From a virus (lineage: Duplodnaviria; Caudoviricetes): a DNA stretch of 64,000 bases. The notes under the pieces are model-generated. The model was not told where the DNA came from. It saw nothing but the letters and a program-made list of their open reading frames with translations, and made no database searches. The translations under genes and the position numbers were made by a program. This document shows positions 3,866 to 33,657 of the stretch, one piece after another (position 1 is the first letter of the stretch; every line of letters starts with the position of its first letter). The DNA lies in IMG/VR virus record IMGVR_UViG_3300009031_000221, positions 288,001 through 352,000 of that record, one strand, 5' to 3'.

Positions 3866-4770
3866 ACGGCATTAACCCCAAGGACATCCCGTACCAGTTC
3901 TCCCAGGTAACAGGGGGACATGCGGAACATGTATCCAAAACGGTGGTGAATCCGGAAGCCCGCTTCCGGGCTCATCCCGTTGGGGCTGCCTACATCCACA
4001 GCTACTATGGCCCCTATGGTTCCAATGATCGCGATTCATTCCGATGGGATGACCACTGGAATCATGTTGACCCTAAGATCTTGCTTGCGGTCTTCACCAT
4101 GGAAGAGTGCTGCCGTCTTTGGACGGATTGCATCTTCATGTCCGACATGTCCAAGTACTGCGAAGATGAACACACGCTCCTGTGGAAAATCAACAATATC
4201 CACTGGCAGTTTGGGTGCCAGCGTAGCTGGAATCTCCTTGTGCGGAACTTGGATGCATTGAAGCGGCTGGACTTCGGCGTGCCGGGGTTTGACGTGCGAA
4301 TCACGCATCCGTGCTCCATCAACATGGTAGGCAGGGCTGCACATGGCCCCTACCTGTACTTGGATGGGGCGCTTGGATTGCTGTTGTACTACAAGGGGGA
4401 ACACGTCCTGACGGTTGGTTTCTCGGTGAATACCGATGGGGTCTACATCGCACAAGTACAACTCCGGCAGAAGAAGGGCAACCGTTTCATCTACAAGCTT
4501 CCCGATCATTACATGGACATGGTATTGGACATGTTCAGGCGTGCTTTCCATGAGGATGACCTGTGGCTCGTGGAAGGGAAAAGCGCTGCTGCCGCAGTGG
4601 TGCGATCCTACGGCAACGGCCCGCATAACGTCACGCCAGAAGTCGAACAACGTATCGTATCGTTGTACAATCGCCCGTTGAGTTCATTCAACAGGACAGA
4701 GCCCGCTTATCAGAGTGGGCGTAATTACACCCGGTTAGTCCCGGCCAAGACCCAAGCACTCGCCGCTTAG
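3862..4770 (+). CDS. Hypothetical protein, possibly DUF535/VirK-like in its C-terminal half
   Basis: Long ORF; ATG 3862 overlaps upstream TGA; LTVGFS...VYIAQVQ segment loosely resembles DUF535. Confidence 0.5.
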   Translation: MNGINPKDIPYQFSQVTGGHAEHVSKTVVNPEARFRAHPVGAAYIHSYYGPYGSNDRDSFRWDDHWNHVDPKILLAVFTMEECCRLWTDCIFMSDMSKYCEDEHTLLWKINNIHWQFGCQRSWNLLVRNLDALKRLDFGVPGFDVRITHPCSINMVGRAAHGPYLYLDGALGLLLYYKGEHVLTVGFSVNTDGVYIAQVQLRQKKGNRFIYKLPDHYMDMVLDMFRRAFHEDDLWLVEGKSAAAAVVRSYGNGPHNVTPEVEQRIVSLYNRPLSSFNRTEPAYQSGRNYTRLVPAKTQALAA

Positions 4771-4780
4771 GAGATTCGTC

Positions 4781-5041
4781 ATGATCAGTTCATTGCTGCC
4801 TGTCAAGGCATTCGATCAGTACACCGTTGCCGAACAAGAGTTCATCGATCAGAGGACTCGTCAGTTGACGACCAACTGGGCGGATCAACAAATCCAGTTC
4901 GGAACCATGCCCAAGGATGATGGCAGGGGGTTGGGATTGGTCTACTTCGAGTACGCCAAAGCCAAGAAGTGGCTCAATGCTGACGGCACCAAGTTGACTT
5001 CCGCCGGCCTCATGGTTGCCGCCCGCTTCCTGAAGCGCTAG
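4781..5041 (+). CDS. Hypothetical protein
   Basis: GGAG RBS, co-directional with upstream operon. Confidence 0.6.
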   Translation: MISSLLPVKAFDQYTVAEQEFIDQRTRQLTTNWADQQIQFGTMPKDDGRGLGLVYFEYAKAKKWLNADGTKLTSAGLMVAARFLKR

Positions 5042-6194: not shown

Positions 6195-8291
6195 ATGCAA
6201 GTTGCCCTAAGCAATCGTGATGTCAAATCAAGTGGTGTAGAAGCTCGTGGTACCTTTGGCATTAGCCACAAGGCACAAGCCCACATCATGACCATCTTGC
6301 GGGATACATTATATTCCGACAAGGTTTTGGCAGTCCTTCGTGAGTATGCTTCGAATGCCTGGGATGCACACAAGCAGTCCGGTAAGGGCCACATTCCTAT
6401 CGAAGTCATGATGCCTACAGCAATGAGCCCGAACTTGGTCATTCGTGACTTTGGTATGGGCATGTCGGAAGACACGGTATTCAACGTGTTCACGCAATAC
6501 GGAGACAGCACTAAGCGCGAGACGAATGACGCTGTGGGCATGATGGGCATCGGTAGCAAGTCCGGCTTCGCCTACTCCGATTCCTTCACGGTGACCTCGT
6601 GGCATGACGGAACCAAGAAAGTCTACATCGCTGTCCTGGATGATTCCGATGTCGGCGAGATCAACAAGATGCACGAGGAACCCTGCGACTTCGATGAAGT
6701 CGGTGTGGAGATCCAGATCGCCGTCCGCCCGGCGGACATCTATGAGTTTCAACGCAAGGCGATCAAGTTGTTCCCGTACTTCTACCCAACCCCCAAGATC
6801 AACTTGGAGATGCCCAAGTACAACCGGAACGTGACAACCCACGGATTCTTTTCCATCAACCGGGAAGAAGATGGGTGGATTGCCGTTCAGGGGTGCATCC
6901 CTTACCGTATCAATATCGCTCAGGTTCAGCCCGAGTTGGAAGCTGCCGGAATTTGGGACGCCCTGTCCCGTACCACCGGCGGATTGTTCTTCCCTATCGG
7001 CGGCGTTCAGGTCAGCGCTTCCCGTGAGGAACTCAAGTACAGCACTTCAACCAAGAAGGCAATCGTTTCCAAATTCACGGAAATGATTGAGTCCTACATC
7101 GCAGACGTGCTTGAAGTCCTGAACAAGGATGATCTTTCCGATTGGGAAAAGCGGCAGAAGGCTTGCTTCATGGAACATACCATGAAGATCGGTATCCCTG
7201 CCAAGTACAAGGATTGGGCACGCTATCAGGTGAACCTCTGGGGTCAAGGGACGGAGCATAAGGAACCGCAAACATTCATTCTTCTTCGTGGCAACTCCCA
7301 AACTAACAGTATCGGTGTGGATGTTCGGACTCGATTCGTCATCAAGGATGATCCTCGTTCCATGGAAGGGTTTCGGTTGGAACCCTCCGATGTAGTAGTT
7401 CGTTCTTTGCGGGATGCGCCTATTGATGCTGTGGTCGATGAATTGGAAACCTACATCGCTTTGAATCACCTGACGGGCATTCGGATTGCCCGAATCTCGG
7501 ATATGAATTGGAACCAGCCTTACCGATCACAGGCAATGCAAAGGAAGCAACAAGGTCCCGTCAACCAGAAGTACTTGGTCAAGAGCTTCCAGCTAAAGGA
7601 TGACACGCTCAACCGTTCCACGCTGTCTGAAAACTGGGATATTGTAACCCGGGAACCAACGGATGAGGACGTGTTTGTTATCATTGAGGCTTTCAAGGTT
7701 CCGGACGTGTCTGACTTTTACCGGCAAATGGTGAAAGATCGGGAAGCTGCCAAGGCCTTGGGCTTCACCATGCCCACGGTCTACGGCTATAAATCGACGG
7801 AGAAGACCCCCATCAAGGTCAAGGATTGCAAGGGCACGGAATACACGAAGTGGCGTGAGAAGTTCATCATGGACATGATGACTCCGAAGCGGATTGAAGT
7901 CCTTCAGCAACTCCGGTGGTCTACGTTGTTCCACGATATGCACGCCTGGGAGATTGCAGACCGCGGGGATCTTCCTGTGATTACTGCGGATCTGCGGAAG
8001 AACCTGGGAGAGCATCCTGTGACTCTCATGTTCGAGAAGCACGCGAAGTCCAAGGTGCTTCTCGCGGGATTGCCCCACGGCATTTCCACACACCTGTTGC
8101 ATCTGTTGGCAGGCGTGACATTAGAAGTCCCTTTTGACGGGCGTAATGCCTACAAGGCTGTGACAGACAACTATCCCCTCATCGCAGTAAGCGGCGGGGT
8201 TGCCCTCCTCTGCAAGGAACATCGTTTGCACTGGATGAATTACATCAAGCTGGTTGATCAGGTAGCTGCAATCGCTGCCCATAATGTGTAG
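6195..8291 (+). CDS. rIIA: rIIA-like protein (N-terminal GHKL ATPase)
   Basis: LYSDKVLAVLREYASNAWDAH, IRDFG.GMS, STKR..ND..G..GIGSKS.FAYSDSFTV; adjacent to rIIB. Confidence 0.88.
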   Translation: MQVALSNRDVKSSGVEARGTFGISHKAQAHIMTILRDTLYSDKVLAVLREYASNAWDAHKQSGKGHIPIEVMMPTAMSPNLVIRDFGMGMSEDTVFNVFTQYGDSTKRETNDAVGMMGIGSKSGFAYSDSFTVTSWHDGTKKVYIAVLDDSDVGEINKMHEEPCDFDEVGVEIQIAVRPADIYEFQRKAIKLFPYFYPTPKINLEMPKYNRNVTTHGFFSINREEDGWIAVQGCIPYRINIAQVQPELEAAGIWDALSRTTGGLFFPIGGVQVSASREELKYSTSTKKAIVSKFTEMIESYIADVLEVLNKDDLSDWEKRQKACFMEHTMKIGIPAKYKDWARYQVNLWGQGTEHKEPQTFILLRGNSQTNSIGVDVRTRFVIKDDPRSMEGFRLEPSDVVVRSLRDAPIDAVVDELETYIALNHLTGIRIARISDMNWNQPYRSQAMQRKQQGPVNQKYLVKSFQLKDDTLNRSTLSENWDIVTREPTDEDVFVIIEAFKVPDVSDFYRQMVKDREAAKALGFTMPTVYGYKSTEKTPIKVKDCKGTEYTKWREKFIMDMMTPKRIEVLQQLRWSTLFHDMHAWEIADRGDLPVITADLRKNLGEHPVTLMFEKHAKSKVLLAGLPHGISTHLLHLLAGVTLEVPFDGRNAYKAVTDNYPLIAVSGGVALLCKEHRLHWMNYIKLVDQVAAIAAHNV

Positions 8292-20252: not shown

Positions 20253-21011
20253 ATGAGTAACCTTGACAACAATAGTGACAAGTGGATTTCGGTATTGGAG
20301 ACGTTGCCTATAGACTGGCGATTTGTGTTGGGTTGGTATCCATCGGAGGATCCGAACGGGATCAACACGGTGTTTCGTTCTGAGGGGCGTTGGTGGGGAA
20401 TCAACCTGTGCAATTCGAGGTTTGGCAATGGTGATTGTGCTGCTCCTTTGTATTGGCGATATTTGCCGTCTGGGCCTAATGGGGAGGATGTCTATGCGCC
20501 GCACCCTGCGATAGCGGAGAGGGCAACGGCCTGGATCAAGGCGGAGGCGCTTGTGGCAGCGATTGTGAAGGCTGAGGGCGACGGAGTCGGGGTAGAGAAG
20601 CGAGAGTTTGGTAGTGTCCTGTCTCCTGATACCGATTGGAAGGAGATTGAAACGATATGTTTGTCCTTACCTGATTACTTGCATATTCGGCGTAACCATT
20701 TCGTGTCATTGACGGGTGTAAATGACACGAAGAGTGAACGTGGGGAGTTGTTTGGTGCGAATGACGGGGCATCCGGTACGCCTGGACAGATCCCGTGCCC
20801 AATCAGATGCCATTTGACGGCCTTCATCTACCGTCAGTCCCTGGGGCATGGCCAGTTCGATCATGTCCATGATGATCAGGACGTTCCCATCGTACATTTG
20901 CAGGTTTTGGATCCTCTGATCAACCACGAGGTCGAAGATCGGGCCATAGAATGTCTGCATGACCTGAATGCGAGGATCGTAATCCCGGCTGAATACCAGA
21001 TTGGCAACTGA
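20253..21011 (+). CDS. Hypothetical protein, paralog of 19662, with a run-on tail antisense to the next gene
   Basis: Similarity ends at RGELF (about 20755); remainder overlaps 20706-21317. Confidence 0.6.
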   Translation: MSNLDNNSDKWISVLETLPIDWRFVLGWYPSEDPNGINTVFRSEGRWWGINLCNSRFGNGDCAAPLYWRYLPSGPNGEDVYAPHPAIAERATAWIKAEALVAAIVKAEGDGVGVEKREFGSVLSPDTDWKEIETICLSLPDYLHIRRNHFVSLTGVNDTKSERGELFGANDGASGTPGQIPCPIRCHLTAFIYRQSLGHGQFDHVHDDQDVPIVHLQVLDPLINHEVEDRAIECLHDLNARIVIPAEYQIGN

Positions 21012-21317
21012 CCGCTCAGGGTCAAGGAACAGAACTCGGTTGTTTGGATCCTTGTCAATCCACCCCTTGGCGATTGCACGAAGAACTGTCGTTTTCCCCG
21101 TGTTCGCCTCGCCTGCGATAACATGGTCATTGGCGAAGGTACATTCATTTATCAGGCTACGGCCACCATCACCGTAAATGACGCCGAAGTTCATCGCCTT
21201 GGCCATTTGCCGATTCCGCTTCGGGTCAACCTTGGCCTCAACGGCACGGGGCAGGAAAGGCACAGCCATTGCGGCCAGGGCAGTGGCGAGGAAGTTACGG
21301 CGTGTCGGGTTCGTCAT
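20706..21317 (-). CDS. Chimeric protein: Tat-like signal, PolA motif-B-like peptide, RecA/DnaB-like P-loop fragment
   Basis: TRRNFL; RQMAKAMNFGVIYG; GEANTGKTT, VLFLDPE, LIIMD, CPVI..KQL. Confidence 0.65.
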   Translation of the reverse strand: MTNPTRRNFLATALAAMAVPFLPRAVEAKVDPKRNRQMAKAMNFGVIYGDGGRSLINECTFANDHVIAGEANTGKTTVLRAIAKGWIDKDPNNRVLFLDPERSVANLVFSRDYDPRIQVMQTFYGPIFDLVVDQRIQNLQMYDGNVLIIMDMIELAMPQGLTVDEGRQMASDWARDLSRRTGCPVIRTKQLPTFTLRVIYTRQ

Positions 21318-21346: not shown

Positions 21347-22021
21347 TTACGCAATTGGCGGGGCAATTAGGTCTACCTGATTGAACGCCGCCTCGATCAT
21401 TTCGTTGAACTTGGCACGCTGAATTGATTTTGCCTCATCATAGCGAGCTTCAATGCCAGTGTTGGTACGAAAGCCTCGTTCAGCAAATGCCTCTCGGGCA
21501 GCGCGGGCGGCGCTACGACATTCACGAACAACACTGCTAGGGGTATATCCCGTTGAAGCATGCACGGCAGCAAGGCTGGCTTGATAACCTGATTCAGTAC
21601 GGGTATTCAGCATGGCTTCGTATGCTATCTCACGTGATTCGGCACGAATGGTTTCATCCCCTGTTTCCAAGTAACGCTTGACAAGCTCAGGGCAATCCCA
21701 ATCGGAAACAACCTGAAGGACACACCAACGGGCATATTCACGGAGGGTTGAAGTTGCATCAATCCGTTTTAGGTGCGTCCGTTTACTTGCGGCAACCTTA
21801 TCCCCATGATGTTCTACGATGGTTCCGCCTAGTTCTACTAGGTCAAGCGTTGGGCTACCTGCGGCTGCATAATGCAGTGCGTCGTACGGGTCTACTGAGG
21901 CATGCAGGCCATTGTGGCAAGCAGTGATTTCGCCTTCCTGAATGTAGGGCTCAGGGCGAACCTCATAGATGATAGTGCCGTGCTGTGCAAGCCCTTTGTT
22001 ACTGAACCAGTAGGCTTTCAT
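21347..22021 (-). CDS. MKAYWFS-family paralog
   Basis: CHNGLHAS.DP.DAL, EYARWC.L, YLETGD. Confidence 0.75.
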   Translation of the reverse strand: MKAYWFSNKGLAQHGTIIYEVRPEPYIQEGEITACHNGLHASVDPYDALHYAAAGSPTLDLVELGGTIVEHHGDKVAASKRTHLKRIDATSTLREYARWCVLQVVSDWDCPELVKRYLETGDETIRAESREIAYEAMLNTRTESGYQASLAAVHASTGYTPSSVVRECRSAARAAREAFAERGFRTNTGIEARYDEAKSIQRAKFNEMIEAAFNQVDLIAPPIA

Positions 22022-22653
22022 GGAGTTTCCTTGGCGAATGCTGCATCGATCATTTCGTTGAACTTGACACGGAGAGGAATGATGGCGATTTCATCCGCGA
22101 TTGTATGTGAAGTTGTAGCGTCGACGACAGCGTATGCGGCTTCTTCCGCATCCCCTGCGACAACGTTAGGGTGACATGCCATGCAGGCAGCCCTATTCGC
22201 ACGATGAACAACCGTACGATCACCCTTTACCATAAGCACCCTATTAGCATCATAGACGGCCTTGTATGCCTTCTTCTGAAGGGTAGGATCCCCCGTTTCC
22301 AGGTATTGCTTGACAACTTCCGGACATTCCCAAAGGTGAATGACCCGAAGGGCACACCAACGAGTAAACTCACGGATAATCGGAAGGGCATCGATACGCT
22401 TGATGTGCGTACGATGGCTTGCCACGTACTTGTGATTCAATCCTATACCGTGTTCCTTGATCTGGCCATCAAGCTCCACGATATCGACCATGTTCCCATT
22501 ATTGGCGAACAACAATGCTTGGAAAGGATCCTCACCGGCATGGAGCCCGTGTATACAAGGGACAACAGGCTCATCCTCTACAAAGGGCTCAGGGCGAACT
22601 GTGTAGGTGTTTCCGTGGGATCTTCCACCCTTGCTAAACCAATAGGCTTTCAT
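22018..22653 (-). CDS. MKAYWFS-family paralog
   Basis: CIHGLHAG.DP..AL, EFTRWCAL, YLETGD. Confidence 0.75.
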   Translation of the reverse strand: MKAYWFSKGGRSHGNTYTVRPEPFVEDEPVVPCIHGLHAGEDPFQALLFANNGNMVDIVELDGQIKEHGIGLNHKYVASHRTHIKRIDALPIIREFTRWCALRVIHLWECPEVVKQYLETGDPTLQKKAYKAVYDANRVLMVKGDRTVVHRANRAACMACHPNVVAGDAEEAAYAVVDATTSHTIADEIAIIPLRVKFNEMIDAAFAKETP

Positions 22654-24564: not shown

Positions 24565-24941
24565 AGCGGGTCTTCCTCAATGTCATGCTGTGTCCCAAGG
24601 CAAAGGAATTCCAGTTCATCATGGATGTGATCCAGTTGGGCCTGCCGATACTGGGTCGCAGCGGCGATCAACATGATCTTCCTGGGACTCGAGTGATCGA
24701 ACAGCAATCCATAGTAGCCCAAAGCATCGGTAGACGCTTCCGCCAACTTCGTTGCAAGCTCGAGCACATCAGGCGTAGGAGGCCAGTTGAAGAAGTTCAT
24801 GACTGCCTCAGGCGTTTTCGTGACCGGATGCCCCGTACGACGCAGAAACTGCCCTGCATCCAACACACGGTTGCGGCCTTTGGATTCGTCGCTCTGCATG
24901 TAGGCGGAGATCAATTCAGATGTCAAGTAATCGTCAATCAT
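24561..24941 (-). CDS. Hypothetical protein
   Basis: Coupled. Confidence 0.6.
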   Translation of the reverse strand: MIDDYLTSELISAYMQSDESKGRNRVLDAGQFLRRTGHPVTKTPEAVMNFFNWPPTPDVLELATKLAEASTDALGYYGLLFDHSSPRKIMLIAAATQYRQAQLDHIHDELEFLCLGTQHDIEEDPL

Positions 24942-25602
24942 TTGTGTATCCTTTATAGTGCGGGAACAAGGCGGAACGCGCTTGAATCCCTAGATTCTGT
25001 CCTCTGCAATCATCAAGGGGTTTGGTCGCATGCTTCCAAGGATTCCCGATAATGTCCTGTTTTTCCATAGGGGAGTCGGAATAGTATGCTGCCATGCCCA
25101 GTTGAGTGAATAGCACACTCACAGGTCCCTCCTGGGTATCCGAAATAGCTACGGGGTGTACCTGAATAGGGATACAAACTTGATTGACTCGTGGGTCAAT
25201 CTCGCGGGCGGTTCCCACCAAGGCAGTGATGCAGTCGTTCAATGAAATCCGCAGTGATTCAATGGCATTATTGGCAATAACCTCCATTGAATCACTGGGG
25301 TTTGTGTTGTATGCCAGTTCAAATAGCGGGATAGTTACCCTCCTGCCTGTCCGGTTCTCTAGAATATCGTTCCCATCCTCCCCGAGGAAGAATACAGGTG
25401 TGTTCGGATCTTTGTCATAGATAGGGGCACATCCTGAAGGCAAATCATCGAAATGAACGTGAATGGACTCCCATAGGATACCCTTTGGAAGGATGTTTGC
25501 TTTAGATACCAGGGGAGTGGCAAGGGATGATCGGGTTTGGAAGCCGAGAATGGCAGCGATCGATACTCCCAATGTATTGTGGAGGAATGTTCGACGATTC
25601 AT
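24934..25602 (-). CDS. Tat-signal protein resembling an internally deleted major capsid protein
   Basis: MNRRTFL; LPSGCAPIYDKDP...GEDGNDIL....RRVTIPLFELAYN matches my recollection of a large-phage capsid family. Confidence 0.55.
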   Translation of the reverse strand: MNRRTFLHNTLGVSIAAILGFQTRSSLATPLVSKANILPKGILWESIHVHFDDLPSGCAPIYDKDPNTPVFFLGEDGNDILENRTGRRVTIPLFELAYNTNPSDSMEVIANNAIESLRISLNDCITALVGTAREIDPRVNQVCIPIQVHPVAISDTQEGPVSVLFTQLGMAAYYSDSPMEKQDIIGNPWKHATKPLDDCRGQNLGIQARSALFPHYKGYTND

Positions 25603-25614
25603 GATCCCGTATCC

Positions 25615-25941
25615 TTATAGCGTGAAGGCGTATGGTCCCGTGGTCATAGGGACTTCCTTGACTGTACCGTATTCCTGCCGTGCCCATTGGCGGAGCAAAC
25701 GCCCAGGTTCGTCCGATGTACCCTCAATGAGATCCCAACGGACTGGAGGTCCGTCCACGTCCCCTTCATCATTTGTCGTGTCAATGACAAATTGTTCGAC
25801 TTGGTACATGTAGTCTATACCCGTTCGCCCCCCAACCATTGCGTACAAATTTCCTGGGGGTTCCGATGCGTCATAAATCTTCAAGAACATGCATTCCTCC
25901 TTAGTGCACGATGGGTTGCCCCATTTTGACCGGTAACCCAT
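25615..25941 (-). CDS. Hypothetical protein
   Basis: Likely internal start MFLKIY. Confidence 0.55.
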   Translation of the reverse strand: MGYRSKWGNPSCTKEECMFLKIYDASEPPGNLYAMVGGRTGIDYMYQVEQFVIDTTNDEGDVDGPPVRWDLIEGTSDEPGRLLRQWARQEYGTVKEVPMTTGPYAFTL

Positions 25942-30782: not shown

Positions 30783-31814
30783 ATGGTTCTAGGCATGGAG
30801 GTGCCTATGTCTGATCTACCCAATATCATCGAATTCGCAGCTAGCGTTCTCGATATTCATCTAACACCCGTTCAATGTGTCATATTGAAAGCACATTACG
30901 GTATCCCGTTGGATACAGAGACCCTGTTTGAGATATGTACGCCCCAACTGGCGACGGGGCAATTTATCGTAAACACCTGGACGGAAGCAAAGTACTTGGA
31001 ATACTTGTACTATGAAGGCAGGTCGAATATCCGAGAGGTAGACCACGAACGGCGGGAACTCGTCTTGGCGAGCGGCAGACGGAGTGGCAAGGGGATGCTT
31101 GGGTGCATCATTGCTGCCTATGAGGCATACAAGTTGGCATGGAAGGGCGATCCGCAGGCCTACTACGGTTTGCCCCCAAGCACCGTCCTACAGATTCTGT
31201 TGGTGGGTACCGACAAGGATCAGGCGGGGCTCATTCTTCATGAGGTCAATGGATTCCTCCGTAGCACTCCCCTGAATGACCATCGTGCGAACAATACGCA
31301 GACCTACATGCGATTCCAGACACGGAAGGACATTGATACCTACGGGTCATGGGTGGATGACTTGACGGCAAAGGCCTCTATCAAGGTGACTGCAACGTCT
31401 AGCAATCACCAAGGGCTTCGTGGAGCCGGCAATATTTGTGTCATTTTAGATGAGTTGGCACATTACAAGGAAGCCGAGAACGTCTACCATGCCATCATGC
31501 CTTCGATCATGCTCTTCTCCAAGAAGGCGGAGGACAAGCGCACACCCGTTGGCTCATGTGAAGGGCGTTTGGTAAGCCTGTCAACCCCGAATGGGAAGCG
31601 TGGCATGTTCCACAAGTTGTTCATGGCGGGATTCAATGAAAAGCGTAGCGACAACATGCTGTGCTTGCAAATCCCGACTTGGGAAGCGAATCCGTCTATT
31701 CCGATGGAATTCTACACGGAAATGTACGAACGTCAGCCCAAGTACTTTGGCGTGGAATACGGGGCACACTTCGTAGACCTGTGTTGCCCTCAGTGCGGGT
31801 GCGAATTGGCCTAG
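30783..31814 (+). CDS. Terminase large subunit ATPase-domain-only paralog (no nuclease domain)
   Basis: LTPVQ..ILK, GRRSGK, DKDQA, GLRG.....ILDELAH, LSTPNGKRG.F, PTWE.NP, EYGA.F.D, then stop; likely start ATG 30807. Confidence 0.8.
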   Translation: MVLGMEVPMSDLPNIIEFAASVLDIHLTPVQCVILKAHYGIPLDTETLFEICTPQLATGQFIVNTWTEAKYLEYLYYEGRSNIREVDHERRELVLASGRRSGKGMLGCIIAAYEAYKLAWKGDPQAYYGLPPSTVLQILLVGTDKDQAGLILHEVNGFLRSTPLNDHRANNTQTYMRFQTRKDIDTYGSWVDDLTAKASIKVTATSSNHQGLRGAGNICVILDELAHYKEAENVYHAIMPSIMLFSKKAEDKRTPVGSCEGRLVSLSTPNGKRGMFHKLFMAGFNEKRSDNMLCLQIPTWEANPSIPMEFYTEMYERQPKYFGVEYGAHFVDLCCPQCGCELA

Positions 31815-32756: not shown

Positions 32757-33052
32757 TTGTGTACCCCATAGTGCTTGGGCTTCTCGACTCCGCTTTCCTT
32801 GGCGTACTCCCCGCGTTGTGCAAATACGTTAGCATTCCAACGTCCGCCATAGGGCTTGTATGTTTCCATATTGTTCATCCACTTTACTGCGACCTCGTAT
32901 CGTTCCTTCCAGGTAAACGGCATGGGTTCGTGGTACAAGTCCCATCGGACTTTACGCCACATGCCAAAGAACACGTAGTAGGGGACGGCACGCTCCACGA
33001 TAATGGTTTCGCCGATGATCCTTGTGCGATAGGCTTGTTCGATTAGTGTCAT
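32753..33052 (-). CDS. Hypothetical protein
   Basis: ATGA coupling. Confidence 0.6.
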   Translation of the reverse strand: MTLIEQAYRTRIIGETIIVERAVPYYVFFGMWRKVRWDLYHEPMPFTWKERYEVAVKWMNNMETYKPYGGRWNANVFAQRGEYAKESGVEKPKHYGVHK

Positions 33053-33657
33053 GCGACTCCTTTATCCCACCAGTCATCATACTTGTAACCGGGCGTGTTC
33101 TTGACGACTTCATCCATACCCCTGGTCTTGAAGATGCCGTCTCGGTCTTTGAGGGTCACCCAACCTTGAGCACAATCGACTTCAGGATGCAATGCGGAGA
33201 GGGCGATGACATTGTCTGCGGTTCGCATCCATTTATCCGGGATGGATTCTCCATAGTACATGACAACATAACGATGTCCTGACTGAAGGCAAACCCACTT
33301 CAACAAGTCTGGATCGAGGCAGCAATCCCGAGAACTCCTCGTGTATTCAACTGCCTGATCCCCATGTTGATTGGTTTCGGAAAGCCCAAAGCTAGCCCGA
33401 TAGCGCTTGAATGCCGAAACTGCTAAGTCATGCCATTTCGATCCTATGCAAGGGGCATTGGATACGTGAACAAGCGTCATCGTGCCCAAGGGCTCAATAG
33501 GCACTAGGCGACTCACAATGACCTCAGGGTGCCAGTAATGCCCCATCTGCATATTGGACACGGGCACATGGGCATCCGCCGCCTTGGCTACCCTGGCGCC
33601 AACGAACAACCCACCGAGGGCGAGGAATGACTTGGACAGGAAGTTGCGACGGTTCAT
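33049..33657 (-). CDS. Tat-signal-containing hypothetical protein
   Basis: MNRRNFL, hydrophobic core, AKA-A cleavage-like site. Confidence 0.65.
   Translation of the reverse strand: MNRRNFLSKSFLALGGLFVGARVAKAADAHVPVSNMQMGHYWHPEVIVSRLVPIEPLGTMTLVHVSNAPCIGSKWHDLAVSAFKRYRASFGLSETNQHGDQAVEYTRSSRDCCLDPDLLKWVCLQSGHRYVVMYYGESIPDKWMRTADNVIALSALHPEVDCAQGWVTLKDRDGIFKTRGMDEVVKNTPGYKYDDWWDKGVA

Follow-up and report, generated by a model that had tools for sequence, protein, structure and literature searches.

P0001, a 222-residue protein encoded in the genome of a huge phage, is an old and radically reduced paralog of the major capsid protein (MCP) of the same phage, an MCP of the HK97 type found in phage G. 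Of the elements of the capsid fold, the E-loop, spine helix and P-domain hairpin have counterparts in P0001, and the N-arm and the entire A-domain have none; in place of the lost parts it has a putative twin-arginine (Tat) signal peptide and a C-terminal tail that is specific to its family. In the reading that is favoured here, with a probability of roughly 55%, this reduced MCP paralog is exported through the Tat pathway, cleaved, and serves in the cell envelope, outside the virion, as a module of capsid origin that binds or oligomerises. Specifically, P0001 would fold in the cytoplasm and then cross the inner membrane via the Tat machinery of the host, and its signal peptide would be cut after Ala28. 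A fast-folding or oligomerising capsid fold would be a natural passenger for Tat rather than for Sec. Taken as a whole, the capsid fold has probably been re-used in this case as an envelope protein.

The gene of P0001 and its homology to the major capsid protein

The analyzed stretch of DNA, referred to here as the window, comprises 64,000 nucleotides and covers positions 288001-352000 of a virus record that has 536,053 bp and is rated complete; the sequencing runs in which the record occurs are groundwater metagenomes. An earlier note, made from the letters of the window, described an ORF that was taken to encode a Tat-exported miniature paralog of the MCP, and this ORF was recovered at exactly 24934-25602 on the minus strand, with 222 aa. 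All the strings quoted for it are present in P0001, namely MNRRTFL (residues 1-7), LPSGCAPIYDKDP (54-66), GEDG, RRVTIPLFELAYN (87-99) and IP...LGMAAY (144-173). The gene and its parts are as follows (window coordinates):

24934..25602 (-): whole P0001 gene, 222 codons and a TGA stop, from the ORF and its translation
25612..25616 (-): Shine-Dalgarno-like AAGGA, 9 nt 5' of the P0001 ATG, read from the sequence
25519..25602 (-): leader, residues 1-28, with the n-region MNRR, the NRRTFL motif, an h-region and a c-region, read from the sequence
25465..25518 (-): linker (residues 29-46), modeled with low confidence and standing where the N-arm of the MCP would
25306..25464 (-): block 1, residues 47-99, first P-domain strand and E-loop, from homology to the MCP
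25198..25287 (-): long helix, residues 106-135, from the AF2 model, at the position of the MCP spine helix 112-143
25081..25182 (-): beta-hairpin, residues 141-174, with AF2 strands 141-156 and 159-174, which holds block 2
24937..25080 (-): family-specific tail, residues 175-222, with a conserved N-P-W motif and a predicted helix and with no MCP counterpart
24934..24941 (-): 8 nt in which the end of P0001, with its stop, overlaps the start (ATG) of the 126-aa gene that lies downstream, from the sequence

By sequence criteria P0001 is a real gene, because it has the AAGGA, which overlaps the TAA stop of the 108-aa gene directly upstream, stop/start overlaps on both sides, a position within a long array of small co-directional genes, and a GC content equal to that of the surrounding DNA and the rest of the genome. 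The overlap with the 126-aa gene indicates translational coupling, and the protein is present on six contigs. A scan of the sequence for promoters and terminators returned fewer sites than a scan of shuffled sequence, and the sequencing runs listed for the record include none of RNA.

The MCP of the phage is identified by sequence as P0002, a 291-aa protein of the phage-G type of HK97 capsid proteins encoded at about 137.2-138.1 kb of the record (G000:C1), about 175 kb from P0001. It matches phrog_2522, ‘major head protein’ (E 1.2e-48), the NCBIfam model NF042927 (capsid_Caudo_2, ‘HK97-fold major capsid protein’; E 8e-43) and, over the full length, the PDB chain 6wkk_A, which is Gp27 of phage G (E 9.7e-64). 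The two capsid strings that the earlier note had given for the capsid family, LPDGALPIYDKDP and RRVIFPLFEIASN, both lie literally within P0002. The gene directly upstream of the MCP gene encodes P0003 (234 aa; L002 1809-2513 (-), G000:C1 about 138.07-138.78 kb), which is conserved in LR745208, a 485-kb uncultured phage, and has no sequence match in Pfam, PHROG or PDB, the phage G decoration protein Gp26 included.

A six-frame search (tblastn) of the 536-kb genome of the phage with P0001 as the query gave P0002 as the sole other match (E 1.4e-10). Residues 52-99 of P0001 align without gaps to residues 51-98 of P0002, with 24 of the 48 positions identical (50%; BLASTP E 1e-13), and a profile-profile comparison by hhalign of the alignment of the mini-protein family (A3) with the alignment of the MCPs (A4) extended this first block to residues 47-98 of both proteins (E 2.6e-21). 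Block 1 of P0001 also matches residues 50-96 of phage G Gp27 (6wkk_A), and the block best matched to the MCP falls where the MCP family itself is conserved most strongly. When the family alignment was cut after residue 99 and the remainder was compared with the MCP profile, a second block, residues 143-170 of P0001, was matched to residues 246-276 of the MCP (hhalign probability 96%, E 4.3e-9). By these alignments block 2 is independent of block 1 and collinear with it, and it is the very IP...LG.AAY segment that the earlier note had picked out. The match to the true MCP goes far beyond chance, so significant capsid similarity is present, and with two collinear homologous blocks the view of P0001 as a miniature MCP paralog is borne out. 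So are the two rearrangements proposed along with it: the N-arm is replaced, residues 1-46 of the MCP being swapped for the leader and the linker, and much of the middle is deleted, with about residues 99-245 of the MCP (the spine helix and the A-domain) reduced to 43 residues between the blocks, which form one long helix in the model.

Searched against Pfam and NCBIfam, P0001 matches no family and no capsid model, and its sole match in PHROG is phrog_5924, of unannotated function, at E 0.33. The single match in INPHARED, to LR745208, is no second miniature copy, the matching protein being the MCP of that phage.

Compared with the MCPs of the phage G Gp27 type (6WKK; NF042927; phrog_2522; P0002), P0001 is alike in the E-loop block, the C-terminal P-domain strands, the long helix at the spine position and the order of the elements. 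It differs from them in that it is shorter (222 versus 291 aa), has no N-arm and no A-domain, carries a leader and a tail of its own, is matched by no capsid family model and is encoded far from the head genes. Since the A-domain and the N-arm are missing and no capsid model matches, P0001 is best described as a derivative of the capsid family and not as a member of it.

A partial HK97 fold

Tailed phages, herpesviruses and encapsulins universally build their shells with the HK97 fold, which, to our knowledge, is used whole in every described case. The AF2 model of P0001 is of moderate confidence (mean pLDDT 56.8, pTM 0.56), and the order of the elements in it is that of the MCP model minus the elements of the A-domain:

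N-arm helices: 6-41 in the MCP model; absent from P0001, which has the leader and the linker instead
First strand: about 50 in the MCP model; 48-53 in the P0001 model
E-loop: 53-99 in the MCP model; short strands together with a long one up to 99 in the P0001 model
Spine helix: 112-143 in the MCP model; helix 106-135 in the P0001 model
A-domain elements: about 156-239 (within about 145-244) in the MCP model; absent from P0001
P-domain strands: 245-269 in the MCP model; hairpin 141-156 / 159-174 in the P0001 model
C-terminus: strand 284-290 in the MCP model; two short helices, part of its own tail, in the P0001 model

Helix 106-135 has no significant sequence match to the MCP, block 2 corresponds to the C-terminal P-domain strands 246-276 of the MCP, and the tail helix 199-212 is modeled by AF2 with low confidence.

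A Foldseek search of the model against the PDB yielded nothing at E <= 0.001; the top rows are acyltransferase cores and dodecins at E of about 0.1-0.5, with the dodecin rows at E 0.2-0.5 and a probability of at most 0.3. Against BFVD nothing significant was found either, and the first-ranked entry is Gp27 of phage G (E 0.046). A structural search was also run over a library of 48,161 representative chains, in which the best 50 entries were considered, and 45 of these 50 belong to HK97 shells, to encapsulins or to the floor of a herpesvirus capsid. The HK97-type neighbors have Z of 3.7-6.1, every single Z being below the stand-alone level of the search tool, with 93-136 residues aligned over a model range of about 34-178. 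For 6wkk_A, Z is 4.3. The chain ranges of the neighbors are far longer than the numbers of residues aligned (116 residues over 27-269 in 6wkk_A), as expected if the A-domain is skipped. With neighbors that are almost uniformly of the HK97 type and with two homologous sequence blocks, P0001 has a secure assignment to a partial HK97 fold, so that a fold check proposed in the earlier note comes out in favor of such a fold, even though Foldseek gave no significant match. A search of the ESM Atlas was uninformative for P0001 (feature scores 0.81, TM below 0.42), and the prediction of a complex of three copies of residues 37-222 had a score of 0.00, which for this tool is no answer, neither for nor against self-association.

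Small alpha+beta proteins of the dodecin and DUF74/YbjQ types show a weak, non-significant likeness to the strand-helix-hairpin core of P0001 and no sequence relationship to it; the DUF74 protein 3qkb_A gives Z 5.2 with 93 of its 94 residues aligned. A resemblance of the HK97 E and P domains to dodecin has been noted earlier (PMC11476376). The ancestry of P0001 from an MCP, rather than from dodecin-like proteins, is clear, and P0001 offers a natural minimal module of E-loop and P-domain on which the origin of the HK97 fold, including the proposed dodecin-like core, could be tested.

In the HK97 fold the A-domain forms the center of hexamers and pentamers and closes them, so that P0001, which has lost it, cannot form a shell in the usual way. 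The retained E-loop, spine helix and P-domain parts are those that touch neighboring subunits and decoration proteins in HK97 capsids. This would suit a modulator of head assembly, a protein that binds the MCP or P0003 before or instead of being exported and thereby tunes the assembly of its own heads or poisons that of co-infecting relatives, and capsid homologs that redirect assembly do exist, one of which, SaPIbov5 Ccm (7rwz_B), is among the best 50 structural neighbors of P0001. Such a role is nevertheless decidedly unlikely, given that the gene lies about 175 kb from the head genes, within an accessory array, and that the export-type leader is conserved. Ccm (7RWZ) and the encapsulins resemble P0001 in being HK97-fold proteins that are no longer the shell protein of a phage, but they keep the complete fold and build cytoplasmic shells, whereas P0001 has no ring-closing domain and carries an export-type leader.

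No description of an HK97 derivative devoid of the A-domain, or of Tat-tagged pieces of a capsid protein, was found in the literature, and the phage G genome paper mentions neither. A conserved derivative of this kind with an export-type signal would be a clear instance of the re-use of a capsid fold outside the capsid.

A small family with a conserved export-type leader

An exhaustive HMMER search over 1.84 billion representative proteins found a handful of full-length relatives of P0001, and six or seven relatives are counted in all, which are 21-32% identical to it overall: P0006 (247 aa), P0007 (224 aa), P0020 (232 aa), P0024 (268 aa), P0017 (231 aa), the fragment P0009, and a 271-aa protein that was found by reading the locus around P0017 (L007). 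These proteins have a common architecture, in which a leader is followed by the E-loop block, a helix, a hairpin with the motif V-N-Q-I-x-[IV]-P-[IV]-R-T and a tail with N-P-W; the hairpin is strikingly MCP-like in some members, and the tail motif is absent from the MCP. P0006 and P0017 are encoded on groundwater contigs of 418 kb (L011) and 521 kb (L007), respectively, and P0024 on contigs of 26-36 kb, and the only contigs with P0007 and P0020 are of 3.5 kb and under 1 kb, respectively; all four relatives that were traced to DNA are on contigs from groundwater metagenomes. Scans of IMG/VR with P0001, P0006 and P0024 revealed no further relatives, for which reason the family looks rare; the family alignment was too divergent to serve as a query in these scans. 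A word-indexed search of 5.8 billion proteins with the single P0001 sequence returned only P0001 itself, and the same search with the family alignment added only P0017, P0020 and MCPs.

In block 1, the mini-proteins are about 50% identical to MCPs and 23-37% identical to one another, a pattern that fits an ancient split from an ancestor that was MCP-like and evolved slowly, and the leader, the deletion and the tail that the mini-proteins have in common argue for a single origin. All pairs within the family show fewer non-synonymous than synonymous differences (pN < pS), the dN/dS ratio being unusable because synonymous sites are saturated. These data bear on the suggestion that P0001 is a functionless, decaying mosaic relic of a partial duplication of the capsid gene. 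The disappearance of the MCP similarity outside the two blocks and the very small number of relatives could be read in this way, but the reading frame is uninterrupted, the gene has a ribosome site and is coupled to its neighbors, and the architecture, including the motifs of the leader and the tail, is kept in relatives of such low identity with non-synonymous differences below synonymous ones, so that decay is very improbable.

The start of P0001, M-N-R-R-T-F-L-H, contains at residues 2-8 the stretch N-R-R-T-F-L-H, which corresponds to the Tat consensus (S/T)-R-R-x-F-L-K. It is followed by an h-region with a 13-residue core of moderate hydropathy (peak 12-residue Kyte-Doolittle value 2.07) and by a c-region in which the basic Arg24 precedes S-L-A, with a small-x-small cleavage site predicted at A28|T29. 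As read from these residues, the N-terminus has every feature of a Tat signal that can be checked by hand. Five of the six full-length members of the family keep the leader, and it is homologous between P0001, P0006, P0007, P0024 and the 271-aa protein; the c-region of the family leaders has the form G-[FIL]-[KQ]-x-[KR]-[PS]-x-x-A. With the same layout in the members, the leader is as old as the family of mini-proteins. A basic c-region and moderate hydropathy separate Tat from Sec signals, the basic c-region being a feature by which Sec is avoided, and the start of E. coli CueO is very similar to the leader of P0001.

The curated Tat models, TIGR01409 and PF10518, do not match the leader of P0001, even when it is scanned alone. 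With TIGR01409 (cut-off 16.7 bits), P0020 (17.5 bits) and a neighboring 74-aa ORF on the P0006 contig L011 (19.4 bits) pass and P0024 (16.5 bits) falls just short, and the leader of a relative scores 17.0 bits with PF10518. The Tat-type signal claimed in the earlier note thus stands as regards the RR motif, the h- and c-regions, the conservation, and the relatives at or near TIGR01409, and falls short as regards a match of the P0001 leader itself to a curated model. Compared with the bacterial signals that underlie these models, P0001 is alike in the R-R-x-F-L near the start, the moderate core, the basic c-region and the small-x-small site, and differs in a score below the curated models and in a cargo that is capsid-derived and has no apparent need for a cofactor.

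The missing match to the curated models and the shortness of the n-region leave some room for a leader of another kind, either a signal of the Sec type or a membrane anchor that is not cleaved, in which case the protein would still be bound for the envelope, albeit unfolded or tethered. This variant appears rather unlikely, because a motif of the RR-x-F-L type is present in five proteins of the genome, the family leaders combine the basic c-region with moderate hydropathy (1.8-2.1), and relatives of P0001 do reach the Tat models. The genome of the phage encodes no TatC, and the search for TatA gave only a sub-threshold match (E 0.18); with neither component supplied by the phage, the predicted export would rely on the Tat system of the host.

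Other leader-bearing proteins, the gene neighborhood and possible roles

A scan of the genome for the pattern M(x)RR[NST]F[LI] followed by a hydrophobic core and a small-x-small site identified five ORFs with a twin-arginine-type leader, each with its own ribosome site. Besides P0001, these are the following, all found by the motif scan:

G000:C1 29929-30300 (-): leader-bearing ORF
window 20706-21317 (-): leader-bearing ORF P0005
window 33049-33657 (-): leader-bearing ORF P0004, 202 aa
window 63884 to beyond the end of the window, equal to G000:C1 351884-352450 (-): leader-bearing ORF of 188 aa

The four further leaders start with MNRRSFI, TRRNFL and, twice, MNRRNFL. The DNA sequences of the five leaders are just 25-55% identical, so that they are not recent copies of one another, and the cargoes are mutually unrelated. 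If the leader works, huge phages would send at least five of their own proteins to the host envelope via Tat, and phage proteins that are sent by this route would represent an almost unexplored side of the interaction between phages and their hosts.

Among the other cargoes, P0005 combines its Tat-type leader, which scores 21.5 bits with PF10518 (cut-off 22.7 bits; E 0.0045), with a P-loop segment and with a short stretch that resembles motif B of family-A DNA polymerases (PF00476, E 0.0015); these matches are without exception sub-threshold. Judged by its sequence, this is an odd cargo for export, as pieces of a polymerase and a P-loop would make little sense outside the cytoplasm. P0004 was considered as a second piece of the capsid protein, but its similarity to residues 216-232 of the MCP (9 of 17 residues, E 0.004) is too weak.

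Two of the leader-bearing proteins have leaderless twins. On L007, the gene of the leader-bearing 271-aa mini-protein (4183-4998) is followed by that of the leaderless P0017 (5001-5696). In the genome of P0001, directly upstream of the leader-bearing 188-aa protein, a leaderless paralog that is 51% identical to it (G000:C1 352456-352905 (-)) begins exactly at the point that corresponds to the start of the mature twin. As P0017 and this paralog have no leader, a cytoplasmic existence of the cargo is evidently possible too. Such pairs could reflect a dual location, or export of the two proteins together as a folded heterodimer, something that only Tat permits.

The genes that neighbor P0001 have no known function. 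A 343-aa protein encoded in the window at 30783-31814 (+) has a sub-threshold match to the TerL ATPase (E 2e-4) and is 43% identical to a protein encoded on L007 at 6677-7711 (-), 1 kb from the pair of mini-protein genes. With this homolog beside the mini-proteins of L007, the mini-protein and the TerL-ATPase-like gene appear to belong to the same loosely conserved island; two further neighbors of P0001 are also common to L007.

The role of P0001 is best guessed, from the analogy with known phage proteins, as an accessory function in the envelope during infection, such as keeping rival phages from entering or modifying the envelope itself. T4 Imm and Sp and T5 Llp are phage exclusion proteins located in the envelope, and P0001 would be like them in being a small accessory protein that a phage makes for the envelope of its host, although no relation in sequence or fold exists. 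Superinfection exclusion and the action as a decoy, the two roles proposed in the earlier note, are both guesses. A decoy, either cytoplasmic or tethered to the membrane, would present the conserved capsid surface of E-loop and P-domain to defense sensors that recognize capsid protein, with the leader parking it, and whatever it has bound, at the membrane or the Tat receptor and with no true export. The sensors in question, of the CapRel, CBASS and Lit types, are cytoplasmic, and for this reason the idea fits export badly and requires action before or without it. It agrees, as far as sequences go, with the conservation of an MCP-like surface, the block closest to the MCP being the most conserved one in the MCP family, with the existence of leaderless copies, with the polymerase-motif and P-loop pieces of the likewise leader-bearing P0005, and with the accessory island with the TerL-ATPase-like protein, which is loosely syntenic between this phage and the L007 phage. 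Yet the classical cleavage site found throughout the family points to real export, and, block 1 being just 50% identical to the MCP, there is no evident copying of any particular epitope; a decoy is accordingly an unlikely explanation compared with export to the envelope. A broader scheme, quite improbable on the present data, would make the fusion of a portable Tat-type leader to pieces of conserved core proteins of the phage itself (the capsid E-loop and P-domain in P0001, a polymerase motif and a P-loop in P0005) a gene class of huge phages, some members of which have leaderless twins; the products could bind cytoplasmic factors that recognize such pieces, for instance defense sensors or proteins of a rival phage, and either retain them at the translocon of the Tat system or take them through it as folded complexes.

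Two further observations concern the surroundings of the mini-protein genes. In the window, at 21347-22653 (-), 3 kb from P0001, two adjacent paralogs of 224 and 211 aa each have an N-terminal DUF7666. On L011, three genes downstream of the mini-protein gene, a 153-aa ORF (6250-6711 (+)) starts with MALLGQASGGW, which is the N-terminus of P0003 and of its counterpart in LR745208 (the same ten residues), and this ORF is possibly another borrowed piece of a head protein.
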